A DNA stretch of 64,000 nt. Origin: Bacteroidota bacterium. GTDB taxonomy: Bacteria; Bacteroidota; Bacteroidia; Bacteroidales; JAAUTT01. Shown here piece by piece: positions 56,720-57,804 of the stretch (its first letter is position 1; every line of letters starts with the position of its first letter). The DNA lies in assembly GCA_030706405.1 (NCBI GenBank), contig JAUZOO010000001.1, positions 79,762 to 143,761 on the forward strand, written 5' to 3'. The notes under the pieces were generated by a model that was given only the letters and a program-made list of their open reading frames with translations, was not told where the DNA came from and did not search any database. The position numbers and the translations under genes are program-made.

Positions 56720-56759
56720 AATGTCTGATTTTAGTTTAACCTAAATTCATTTACATAAA

Positions 56760-57804
56760 ATTACAATAAACAATTCCACCGCACAAGCAGGTTATATGGT
56801 GTTCCTCTTTCTCCTTCGGCAAGCCGTGCGCCAGCCCGATGTAGCACTTGCCTATAATTATATTAATTTTTAAGGTATAGTCAAAAGCTACACCGCCCTA
56901 CGGGTTGCTATCGCAAGGCTGTCATATGTCTTGCAGCTCAGTCGGCATCGTCACAGCAGCCTACTTTGTCCTGCAATAAGCTTCACTCATTACGGCTGCA
57001 TTACATTTCAGGGCTTCGCTGCGCTCAACTACCTTACATTTCATTTCGCCTCCATTCGTTTCAGCCTTTTGCAGTCCACCGGCTGCATTGTTTGGCTCGC
57101 CTGCGGGTCGCTTCGGGCTGCGGCTAACTATATTTATTTGCCTCCACTTCGTTCTGGCAATTAAAGCGGTAGCCTTGTGTAGTGCGTTACAGGCTGTCAT
57201 GGTTTTTGCAACAAATAAAAGGCAAAAACCTCGCCAGCCTTCCACTTCTACATATGCTGTCCATCGCCTTCGTTCCTCAGGCTTTTAGTCCACCACCCTT
57301 GCTCAACTCGCAGTGGCTTCGCAGGTCAAACCATCGGGCGCAATCCTAAACACAGGCAAAAGCTATTGCACCCTCAGGTTTGCCTTTTTGCTCATGGCTG
57401 TTATAACCTGCTTTTTCGACCCACAATTAAAAAAGAAAAACAAATAACAATTCCTTGATTTAACAAATACACCAAAACATAACAGCAAAGTTACAGGCGT
57501 GGTTGTCAAAGCTGACAAGGGTTTGCTTCGCCAGCCTCAAAAAATCTCCACCCTTCTTAGGTCGGGTAGTATTTTTTGGTCTGCCCTTGCATCTTTGCCC
57601 TCCAGCCTGTGGACACACTGGCATTATGTTTAACTGTATTTTTCGCCGTAGGTTGGCTGGCTGGTGGTTGGTTGCCTACACTTGTAGTTCGGTTCGCTTT
57701 CACTTTTCATATTTAGGTGGTGCGGTTCCGTTGGTTTCTATTCAGCTTTTGTGGCTGTCGTTCTCTATTGGTAAGCTGCCGTTTTAGGCGGCTTACTTTT
57801 TTTT
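56760..57804 (+). other. ORF-free, GC-richer, pyrimidine-skewed segment with degenerate repeats and hairpins; candidate structured ncRNA(s) or cis-acting DNA region
   Basis: Only short overlapping low-quality ORFs occur in any frame. Repeated words are CGCCAGCC (x3), AGTCCACC (x2), GCCTCCAYTTCGTT (x2) and CGGCTGCATT (x2). There is a perfect 9-bp hairpin at 57201-57209 / 57222-57230. The segment ends in an intrinsic terminator on the + strand. Confidence 0.35.
57771..57804 (+). terminator. Intrinsic terminator on + strand with no upstream + strand CDS
   Basis: 10-bp stem GTAAGCTGCC (57771-57780) / GGCGGCTTAC (57787-57796, one G-U pair), followed by T8 (57797-57804). Confidence 0.6.

Follow-up and report, generated by a model that had tools for sequence, protein, structure and literature searches.

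Within the window (the whole 64,000-nucleotide stretch of DNA analysed here), positions 56720-58126 stand above their flanks in GC, and a modular block with the following features is found here, ahead of a gene that travels with it:

56782..57419, minus strand favoured: module A+mid, a single closed non-coding domain of ~640 nt with ~20 helices
56786..56797 with 57404-57415: terminal closing helix of A+mid, in which the left arm AAGCAGGTTATA pairs with the right arm TATAACCTGCTT
56819..56934: long module A hairpin, whose loop is AT-rich and which encloses a CCC-NNN-GGG hairpin
57099..57123: most widely conserved piece of module A, GCCTGCGGGTCGCTTCGGGCTGCGG, with its long-range partner CTCGCAGTGGCTTCGCAGG at 57306-57326 in mid
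57467-57806, plus strand: module B, a structured leader and a small ORF
57467..57625, plus strand: structured 5' leader of module B
57486..57493, minus strand: TAACTTTG, a match to the Bacteroidetes -7 box TAnnTTTG inside the B leader, pointing leftwards to A+mid
57537..57577: hairpin H, ahead of the small ORF and between an A-run and a T-run (CAAAAAATCTCCACCC...GGGTAGTATTTTTTG)
57626..57787, plus strand: small ORF of 53 aa, MFNCIFRRRLAGWWLVAYTCSSVRFHFSYLGGAVPLVSIQLLWLSFSIGKLPF and a stop codon
57770..57804, plus strand: intrinsic terminator, an 11-bp stem and then T8, which is helix 10 of the B fold
57838..58009, plus strand: module X-Y, with an outer stem AGGCGGGGCG (57862)/CGCCCCGCCT (57994), equivalent to inverted repeat I19, and an interior formed by a UCAAGGU/ACCUUGA helix and a GCCC-loop-GGGU hairpin
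58010..58055, plus strand: conserved polypyrimidine tract GCTTTCTTTTTTCTTTTTTTCGGTTTTTCTTTCTTCTTTG
58127..58876, minus strand: 249-aa backbone gene, which travels with the block

The GC-richness and plus-strand pyrimidine skew described in the original prediction are both real: GC content is 0.45-0.51 across 56750-57350 and 0.42-0.47 to 57800, the flanking values being 0.31-0.36. GC skew is negative, as is AT skew away from an A-rich spacer at ~57200-57500. The recurring words are also present, including CGGCTGCATT at 56993 and 57080, and CGCCAGCC (near 56830) and AGTCCACC (57073 and 57288), which are readable in the sequence; TCGCCAGCCT was found at 57231 and 57528, a spacing of 297 nt, not the 300 nt originally given. 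The local hairpins were likewise recovered. GGTTTTTGC/GCAAAAACC at 57201-57230 forms the core of inverted repeat I4, positions 57354-57390 contain AGGCAAA...TTTGCCT and then TTTTTGC, and TTGTCA-AAGC-TGACAA spans 57505-57520. The terminator was also recovered, at 57770-57797, with 11 pairs ahead of T8; the segment has 9 terminator-like sites, compared with 3.0 +/- 1.8 in shuffles. Tandem-repeat, CRISPR-like or ToxI-like arrays are absent from the segment, in which the polypyrimidine tract is the only repetitive part.

A division into two units at the AT-rich spacer 57420-57480 had been guessed correctly, but the end placed at 57804 was too short, as the conserved non-coding block reaches ~58055. 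The claim that the segment represents structured RNA holds for its conserved secondary structure, which is backed by covariation, and for the left unit, which is like a large ncRNA; it fails for the right unit, which is not an ncRNA but a structured mRNA encoding a conserved 53-aa protein.

Module B is a plus-strand unit in which a strongly conserved, folded leader hides the start codon of this protein. No credible ORF had been recognised in the segment, where the longest ORF is 94 aa (57503-57787) and ORFs overlap on both strands; the small ORF at 57626-57787 (+), which is contained in that listed 94-aa ORF, is nevertheless conserved as protein. Its ATG and frame are kept in 29/29 homologues examined, and its length (52-54 aa) and stop in 27/29. 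The fraction of synonymous changes is 0.25-0.31 in the small-ORF frame, compared with 0.12-0.19 in other frames. A profile search with the small ORF retrieved 36 cluster representatives, always via the C-terminal 53-57 aa, among which distant members share ~30-50% amino-acid identity over 52-57 aa, have very different nucleotide sequences, and keep an M-F start, a GWWL motif, an LRVFWLE motif and a final LPF; the contigs encoding these distant members are 500-600 bp long and informative for the leader only. Members of this conserved small protein family are missed or mis-extended by annotation. The T8 terminator had been said to terminate no protein gene, whereas its loop contains the small-ORF stop codon, so that it does end a gene.

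It is unlikely that the whole stretch instead comprises one or two purely non-coding plus-strand RNAs in which the 53-codon frame is open by composition and structure alone. A pyrimidine- and G/T-rich strand does make stop codons rare, with an estimated ~17% chance of one such sequence staying open over 53 codons, but in the same sequences the other two plus-strand frames contain 10-50 stops per 90-nt window and the small-ORF frame none. Indels in the small ORF are of 3 nt only, compared with 1 to 23 nt (1, 2, 8, 11 and 23 nt) in the leader, and the motifs and the length of 52-57 aa persist despite the low amino-acid identity. A purely non-coding origin would be consistent with the hairpin at 57678-57709 and the terminator, which both lie in the small ORF and co-vary, and with a codon-position bias that is weak (75 variable sites at third, 62 at first and 39 at second positions), a modest bias explained by the overlap of RNA structure with coding sequence. 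Even within the terminator, codon changes at the final LPF are synonymous, and they are matched by compensating changes in the non-coding 3' arm.

The small protein is cationic (net charge +3 to +8) and Trp-rich, and AlphaFold2 predicts a two-helix hairpin (pLDDT 68). Its best 15-aa Kyte-Doolittle average is 0.9-1.8, compared with 2.6-3.1 for Hok, TisB and Fst, so that it lacks a transmembrane-grade hydrophobic stretch and is unlike a classical type I toxin. Neither the small ORF nor the 230-aa and 249-aa proteins have a match in Pfam, NCBIfam or PHROGs.

Over 29 sequences, the fold of module B has 79 pairs, 24 of them compensatory, with 97.1% of cells paired, and a covariation score of 0.192, compared with 0.105 +/- 0.005 in shuffles, the structure having been derived from the same alignment as tested. 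The 349 G-U cells, compared with 16 A-C cells, place this fold on the plus strand. The small-ORF ATG is covered by the long-range helix 2, AAACATAA (57478-57485)/TTATGTTT (57624-57631), which is kept in 27-29 of the 29 sequences and in the distant members L114 and L115; as this helix is invariant, its support is conservation, not covariation. The leader strand ACAGGC can pair with either CCAGCCT (57530) or GCCTGT (57606) but not with both at once, and in L114 these alternative pairings co-vary as ACGGGC, CGCCCG and CCCGT. Hairpin H, which is helix 6 of the B fold and has 5 compensatory pairs, looks like a bidirectional terminator or attenuator; in L031, L032 and L054 its distal stem is swapped for an unrelated 12-bp stem, while the flanks are invariant.

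The minus-strand element TAACTTTG (57493-57486) is the only perfect TAnnTTTG box within 56650-58200, and is a putative promoter. A motif search found CAAAGTTA in 25/29 homologues, and the distant copy L115 has TAGATTTG, in which the consensus positions are kept and the two free positions vary. A -33 TTTG lies just 13 nt from this -7 box, which is shorter than the usual spacing. Minus-strand TAnnTTTG boxes are also present at the left edge of X in relatives, where the CAAAnnTA motif was found at the left border of X-Y in 20/30 copies, the copy in the window being an imperfect CAAGATA.

Module A+mid is one closed multi-helix structured domain and is non-coding, with no coding signal in any frame of A or mid. 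Its minus-strand model, built over an alignment of 12 full-length homologues, has 130 pairs, 47 of them with compensatory changes, and 96.8% of cells are paired. With the structure derived, as for B and X-Y, from the alignment that was tested, the covariation score is 0.272, compared with 0.130 +/- 0.007 in shuffles (0/500 of which reach it) and 0.03-0.07 in slid controls. Folded as a single sequence, the domain has a z-score of -4.1. The closing helix (inverted repeat I6), helix 1 of the model, involves 11 pairs kept in 12/12 copies, including one compensatory G-C to U-A change in L061 and an insertion in L043 that is matched on both arms. Many pairs of the long hairpin at 56819..56934, which makes up helices 17-20 of the model, are also compensatory, such as CG 11/UA 11, CG 13/UA 9 and GC 12/AU 9/UA 2. 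The piece at 57099..57123 is conserved into other orders of the class, and its long-range pairing with 57306-57326 provides helices 4-6 of the model.

The original prediction had taken the plus strand as the transcribed one for this left unit, but the best-supported folding strand is the minus strand, which is favoured but not proven. From one and the same alignment, RNAalifold gives -129.0 kcal/mol for the minus strand and -89.7 for the plus strand, and the minus-strand model has 97 G-U cells and 18 A-C cells; both strands fold better than shuffles, and the pairs common to the two strand models have 9 G-U and 11 A-C cells.

A third covarying element, with a polypyrimidine tract after it, occupies positions 57838-58055. 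Over a subset of 11 relatives, module X-Y involves 36 pairs, 10 of them compensatory, and its outer stem covaries; 34 copies were listed, ~30 of which are genuine, and an insert varies among the copies. In relatives, X-Y and the tract directly precede a DUF6943 gene, identified by Pfam, which is missing here.

Both strands were checked against all 4227 Rfam families, including GOLLD, ROOL, HEARO, OLE, group I/II introns, tmRNA and RNase P, and no family matches the segment even at E≤10, the matches at that threshold within 56000-59000 being chance ones only (≤22.6 bits); at the gathering score, a tRNA-Arg is the sole pass within the 64-kb window. None of A+mid, the 53-aa gene with its leader, or the third folded element is in a described family.

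The block is conserved at 67-90% nucleotide identity. The genome from which the window derives has two copies, the second being a paralogous block on contig C15, and the block is present in 10/13 genomes of the genus, in 21/401 sampled genomes of the order, from at least 14 families, and in 20/400 sampled genomes from elsewhere in the class. Both within the order and across the rest of the class, ~5% of sampled genomes carry it, in every case in a chromosomal island, and the other orders retain the arrangement A, mid, B, X, H, Y. An exact 22-mer of module B matches 28 named contigs of environmental Bacteroidales. The end of A+mid and the start of B are separated by a fixed 60-68 nt. Modules A and B are each also found alone, and need not act together. 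The block has no match among PLSDB plasmids or GenBank phages, and the exact 22-mer has none in IMG/VR, which leaves a phage or plasmid origin unsupported.

Its association with defence genes proved to be positional only, as the block travels with the island backbone (DUF6943, DUF6266 and 249-aa genes), while the cargo genes to its left vary between loci. Literature searches returned nothing on DUF6266 or DUF6943. A homologue of the 249-aa gene adjoins the block on contig C15 and at L030, L069, L072 and L081; the family has >3500 clusters, nearly all of exactly 249 aa. AlphaFold2 modelled the 249-aa protein well (pLDDT 82), but searching PDB and BFVD at E<1e-3 retrieved no similar fold and no clue to function.

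This mobile-island backbone, which in relatives carries an HTH_17 excisionase-like gene and a DnaC-like AAA ATPase gene, would also suit a block acting as cis-acting DNA, whether an oriT, a single-strand initiation site or ssDNA promoter, or an origin for replicating the island once excised; the fold would then be formed by single-stranded DNA. Long inverted repeats with AT-rich loops agree with this explanation, as does the tolerance of single-stranded DNA for G-T pairs too. We nevertheless consider it quite improbable, as ~20 helices, long-range pairing over 640 nt and UUCG-type loops are typical of RNA and not of an oriT, the embedded ORF and intrinsic terminators are RNA-typical as well, no relaxase or mobilisation gene was seen adjoining the block at any locus examined, and no copy was found among PLSDB plasmids.

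The transposition of A+mid as a non-autonomous MITE-like element with 12-17-bp terminal inverted repeats, inserted beside B, is very unlikely. No target-site duplication is present in its flanks (left, CACCGCAC; right, TTTCGACC), L079 retains the left edge without the A+mid body, and there are at most two copies in the genome. The conserved inverted repeats AAGCAGGTTATA / TATAACCTGCTT at both ends are what such an element would have, and the presence of A+mid independently of B and its high nucleotide identity across families are also consistent with insertion; its internal covariation, in contrast, indicates selection on the fold and not on the ends alone, and its distance to module B is constant. 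Decay of a protein gene from a GC-richer donor, which could account for GC above that of the flanks and for junk-like ORFs, is scarcely credible and a pseudogene was refuted, as indels are frequently frame-shifting (close homologues differ by 1, 1, 1, 1, 3, 8, 17 and 23 nt), nucleotide conservation across families is accompanied by compensatory base changes, there is no coding signal outside the small ORF, and no protein family matches any frame-derived ORF.

Among known systems, module B invites comparison with type I toxin-antitoxin loci, including tisB/istR-1, zorO/orzO, shoB/ohsC and hok/sok, and the 3'-overlapping bsrG/SR4 and fst/RNAII. It shares with them a small ORF of <60 aa (here 52-57 aa), a structured mRNA of ~340 nt in which long-range 5' pairing buries the start codon as in type I toxin mRNAs, promoter-like boxes on the opposite strand that could yield antisense RNAs, and a location on a mobile element, where type I loci act as stabilisers (PMC7699646). 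Unlike these systems, its small protein has no transmembrane-grade hydrophobic helix, and the block is not similar in sequence to any family described so far. Reports of type I systems are confined to Proteobacteria, Firmicutes and Tenericutes, with an additional cyanobacterial candidate (PMC12390103), and literature searches for type I toxin-antitoxin in Bacteroidetes found no Bacteroidota case.

The putative A+mid RNA resembles GOLLD (RF01998), ROOL (RF03087), HEARO (RF02033) and OLE (RF01071), large RNAs that occur in mobile elements and prophages, in exceeding 600 nt, in being GC-richer than its AT-rich genome, in its many covariation-backed helices and terminal closing helix, and in its sporadic, island-associated distribution. 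It differs from them in having no Rfam match, in the phylum of its host and in its fixed distance from a small-ORF unit; unlike HEARO-type RNAs, no partner IscB or TnpB gene was seen in its annotated flanks. Other large RNAs are reported to form multimers. The B leader, with a terminator-like hairpin and U-run before an ORF and two mutually exclusive helices that both co-vary, is also similar to attenuators and riboswitch-like 5' UTRs, but matches no ligand-binding family, precedes a regulated ORF of only 53 codons and bears a promoter-like box on the opposite strand.

We consider it probable that these features represent a conserved modular regulatory block in the backbone of a family of chromosomal mobile islands of Bacteroidia, which combines a type-I-toxin-antitoxin-like small-protein module with a large structured RNA. 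We infer the strands, ends and promoters of its RNAs from the motifs and folds described above. The leader would keep the small ORF untranslated or attenuated, with attenuation possibly based on hairpin H and its U-run before the ORF and on the 5' strand ACAGGC with its two alternative partners. The minus-strand TAnnTTTG box in the leader would start a divergent transcript into A+mid, folding as the large RNA, and transcription from the second box, at the left edge of X, could produce RNA antisense to the small ORF that terminates at hairpin H. Taken together, these parts would form an RNA-controlled small-protein switch with a type I toxin-antitoxin layout, the most likely role of which would be island stabilisation or regulation.

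It is possible, though rather doubtful, that A+mid is a new class of Bacteroidia-island RNA which is divergent from the 53-aa protein and coupled to it as controller, antidote or assembly partner. If so, an RNA class of ~640-700 nt and a new family of 53-aa cationic, Trp-rich proteins would form a toxin-antitoxin or island-maintenance switch built on a giant RNA, which would give Bacteroidota its first system of the RNA-antitoxin type, and coupling of the large RNA and small protein would provide islands with a new route to stabilise or regulate themselves.

Few large structured RNAs without known function exist, and every one of them has led to new biology. A+mid has many compensatory changes and no Rfam family, and is present in islands with anti-phage defence cargo in an under-studied phylum. 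Even if the two modules are uncoupled, exact coordinates, alignments and a cultured host are on hand for direct tests, module B being carried by the cultured Natronoflexus pectinivorans DSM 24179 (locus L074).

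The stretch between the 230-aa and 249-aa genes (56720-58126, hereafter the block) contains three structured modules and one gene for a small protein, all of them conserved and all belonging to the backbone of Bacteroidia chromosomal islands. The modules are A+mid, a ~640-nt non-coding domain; B, a structured leader followed by a small ORF; and X-Y, a third folded element. Neither neighbouring gene product matched a Pfam family. The features, in window positions, are:

56027-56719, minus strand, 230-aa gene, left neighbour of 56720-58126
56775-57125, piece A
57125-57460, piece mid
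57462-57810, piece B
57838-57925, piece X
57970-58055, piece Y
58127-58876, minus strand, 249-aa gene, right neighbour of 56720-58126

As originally predicted, the segment is GC-richer (45-51% GC versus 31-36% in the flanks) and pyrimidine-skewed on the plus strand, with a negative GC skew and an AT skew that is negative except over the A-rich spacer. The recurring words and hairpins of that prediction were recovered within a few bases, and the terminator is real, occupying 57770-57804 as an 11-bp stem followed by T8. No Rfam family matched the stretch on either strand, even at E<=10.

DNA searches located the block in 10/13 genomes of the genus, in 21/401 sampled genomes of the order (at least 14 families, 72-85% identity) and in 20/400 other sampled genomes of the class (67-87% identity, pieces in the same order), counts that overstate independence because the homologues are related and owe part of their spread to horizontal transfer. 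Exact matches to a 22-mer of module B occurred in 28 contigs of environmental Bacteroidales, among them Natronoflexus pectinivorans DSM 24179, a Prolixibacteraceae MAG and a Breznakibacter MAG; the 22-mer had no match in IMG/VR, and the block had none in GenBank phages and PLSDB plasmids. The block is a conserved, modular part of the island backbone, and its pieces are present or absent independently of one another.

A decayed gene, one of the alternatives first entertained, is ruled out by indels of 1, 1, 1, 1, 3, 8, 17 and 23 nt relative to an 82%-identical relative. In neither A nor mid was there a frame, plus or minus, that was both free of stops and enriched in synonymous changes. The original prediction also held that the segment had no credible ORF, which is incorrect for module B: when the ORFs starting with ATG in 14 full copies were all clustered, a single conserved family emerged, at 57626-57787 on the plus strand, the 3' part of a 94-aa ORF listed for the stretch. 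The ATG and frame are kept in 27/27 non-redundant relatives, and the product is 52-53 aa with the same end point in 25/27; the ORF is also intact in two further distant copies (53 and 54 aa), one of which belongs to another order. A single indel (3 nt) falls within the small ORF, with indels of 1, 2, 8, 11 and 23 nt in the 120 nt upstream. Stops in its frame number 0 in any sequence and 10-50 per 90-nt window in the other two plus-strand frames, the synonymous fraction is 0.25-0.31 versus 0.12-0.19 in other frames, and variable sites rank by codon position as 3 > 1 > 2 (75, 62, 39). The C-terminal L-P-F is retained through different codons, with compensation in the non-coding 3' arm of the terminator.

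Among 1.84 billion cluster representatives, a profile search recovered 36 proteins, matched always over their last 53-57 residues, several being called at 54-57 aa. Called genes usually begin upstream of the small ORF's own start, in the A-poor leader (lengths of 68-199 aa in cluster representatives P0121-P0156), and public annotations of the family are therefore mostly mis-started. The small ORF is rare phylum-wide (1/400 other sampled genomes). The family consensus is MFKxLFRVRxGGWWLLxGVW...PF...YxLRVFWLELxISELPF, and its members are Trp-rich and cationic, with a net charge of +3 to +8, and have no transmembrane-grade hydrophobic stretch. AlphaFold2 predicts two helices (pLDDT 68), and there was no match in Pfam, NCBIfam or PHROG.

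Module B is a predicted structured mRNA of the plus strand. Its consensus fold from 29 sequences comprises 79 pairs (97.1% of cells paired, 24 pairs compensatory), with a covariation score of 0.192 against 0.105 +/- 0.005 in shuffles (0/500 as high) and 0.03-0.06 in slid controls, the structure of every module being tested on the same alignment that produced the fold. The 349 G-U cells against 16 A-C cells identify the plus strand as the folding strand; 33 helices are unique to this strand and 8 to the minus strand. The ATG is contained in a nearly invariant long-range helix, AAACATAA..GC / GC..TTATGTTT. The segment ACAGGC, from the 5' strand of B, can pair with CCAGCCT (57530) or with GCCTGT (57606), and in a distant copy (L114) the three segments become ACGGGC, CGCCCG and CCCGT; this joint change suggests that the leader adopts two alternative folds. 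Within the leader, hairpin H (57537-57577) has an A-run on one side and a U-run on the other, and some relatives carry an entirely different distal stem between the same invariant flanks. It looks like a bidirectional terminator or attenuator ahead of the small ORF. Pyrimidine repeats (CTCTTCCACTCC-like units) extend over ~100 nt upstream of another distant copy of B (L044, 1400-1500).

The whole of A+mid folds as one large domain, and its ends (56782-57419) pair mutually, AAGCAGGTTATA / TATAACCTGCTT, in 12/12 full copies with one compensatory change. Within it, 57099-57123 pairs long-range with 57306-57326, and no other pieces of it are conserved as widely across the class. The minus-strand alignment fold (-129.0 kcal/mol) has 130 pairs in 20 helices, with 96.8% of cells paired, 47 compensatory pairs and a covariation score of 0.272 against 0.130 +/- 0.007 in shuffles (0/500 as high) and 0.03-0.07 in slid controls; the same alignment on the plus strand gives -89.7 kcal/mol and 105 pairs. 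Single-sequence minimum free energies are -216.4 kcal/mol (z -4.1) for the minus and -192.0 (z -3.6) for the plus strand. Because of these energies and pair counts, the domain is somewhat more likely to fold on the minus strand, the pairs common to both strand models being strand-neutral (9 G-U, 11 A-C cells). One lineage (L053 / L076, ~700-1100) carries an AT-rich ~390-nt insertion within the left edge of module A, after which the edge sequence recurs in divergent form (GGTATTCGTCATCGTCAGTCGGC).

The -7 consensus of Bacteroidetes promoters is reportedly TAnnTTTG, as ascribed to Bayley and co-workers in 2000. Within 56650-58200 it occurs perfectly just once, as TAACTTTG at 57493-57486 of the minus strand. 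A motif search found CAAAGTTA in 25/29 homologues, and one distant copy has TAGATTTG, in which the consensus positions are kept and the two free positions changed. The distance between the right end of A+mid and the start of B is constant at 60-68 nt, which fits a divergent arrangement around this box. The same motif (CAAAnnTA) also stands at the left border of X in 20/30 copies, with variable free positions, and is imperfect in the window's own copy. If these promoter-like boxes are active, transcription from the first would proceed leftwards, into the spacer and then A+mid, and that from the second would cross the small ORF in antisense, possibly ending at hairpin H. The small protein may be governed by an RNA-controlled switch, which would be coupled to a large divergent RNA.

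The layout resembles that of type I toxin-antitoxin loci, but the small protein lacks the hydrophobic character of their toxins, and the likeness proposed is one of layout, not membership. Such loci stabilise mobile elements in other phyla (PMC7699646) and have been reported only from Proteobacteria, Firmicutes and Tenericutes, plus one cyanobacterial candidate (PMC12390103). A+mid is nearest in kind to large RNAs of the GOLLD, ROOL and HEARO type, but matches none of them.

The X-Y fold from 11 well-aligning relatives has 36 pairs, 10 of them compensatory. Its outer stem is free in sequence between copies (AGGCGGG/CCCGCCT, AGGCAT..GGGGC/GCCCC..ATGCCT, AGGCTG/CAGCCT), the UCAAGGU/ACCUUGA helix is conserved, and a polypyrimidine tract follows. 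In a same-genus genome (L005, G011:C8, ~2480-3900), an inserted gene, presumably an IS110-family transposase as read by eye, splits the X hairpin right after GTTTTGTAAAGGTCAAG (window 57914); this fits the habit of the IS110 family, which targets hairpin-like sites.

The island begins at tRNA-Arg (41337-41411) and carries a large serine recombinase, a type I restriction-modification operon and an AbiE pair. The recombinase ORF (region 41337-42921) ends within the tRNA gene, with its stop codon at 41371, an overlap of ~40 nt. Genes to the left of the block vary between loci and are cargo. To its right, relatives carry DUF6943, then either DUF6266 (plus strand) or an 83-aa gene and the 249-aa gene (minus strand); the window lacks the DUF6943 gene and retains its upstream element X-Y. 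The 249-aa family comprises at least 3513 clusters in Bacteroidota, nearly all exactly 249 aa and 63-73% identical. Its AlphaFold2 model is confident (pLDDT 82), with helices in the N-terminal half and a beta-sandwich in the C-terminal half, and matched no fold of PDB or BFVD at E<1e-3.

A second, partial copy of the block on contig C15 of the same genome adjoins a homologue of the 249-aa gene, then a 64-aa HTH-like gene and a tRNA. This paralogous island end (L004, G000:C15:346000-360000, 6731-11035) reads module A, a different middle part, X-Y, DUF6943, an 83-aa gene, the homologue (258 aa), the HTH-like gene and the tRNA (10962-11035, minus strand); in the window, this gene set sits at the island end far from the tRNA. 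At another locus (L079, ~6821-7522 in the oriented copy, window 56040-56701), a minus-strand homologue of the 230-aa orphan with 75% amino-acid identity directly adjoins the left edge of the block, in a genome from which the body of A+mid is absent. Because of this position, the 230-aa gene may be a recurrent partner read from the minus-strand side.
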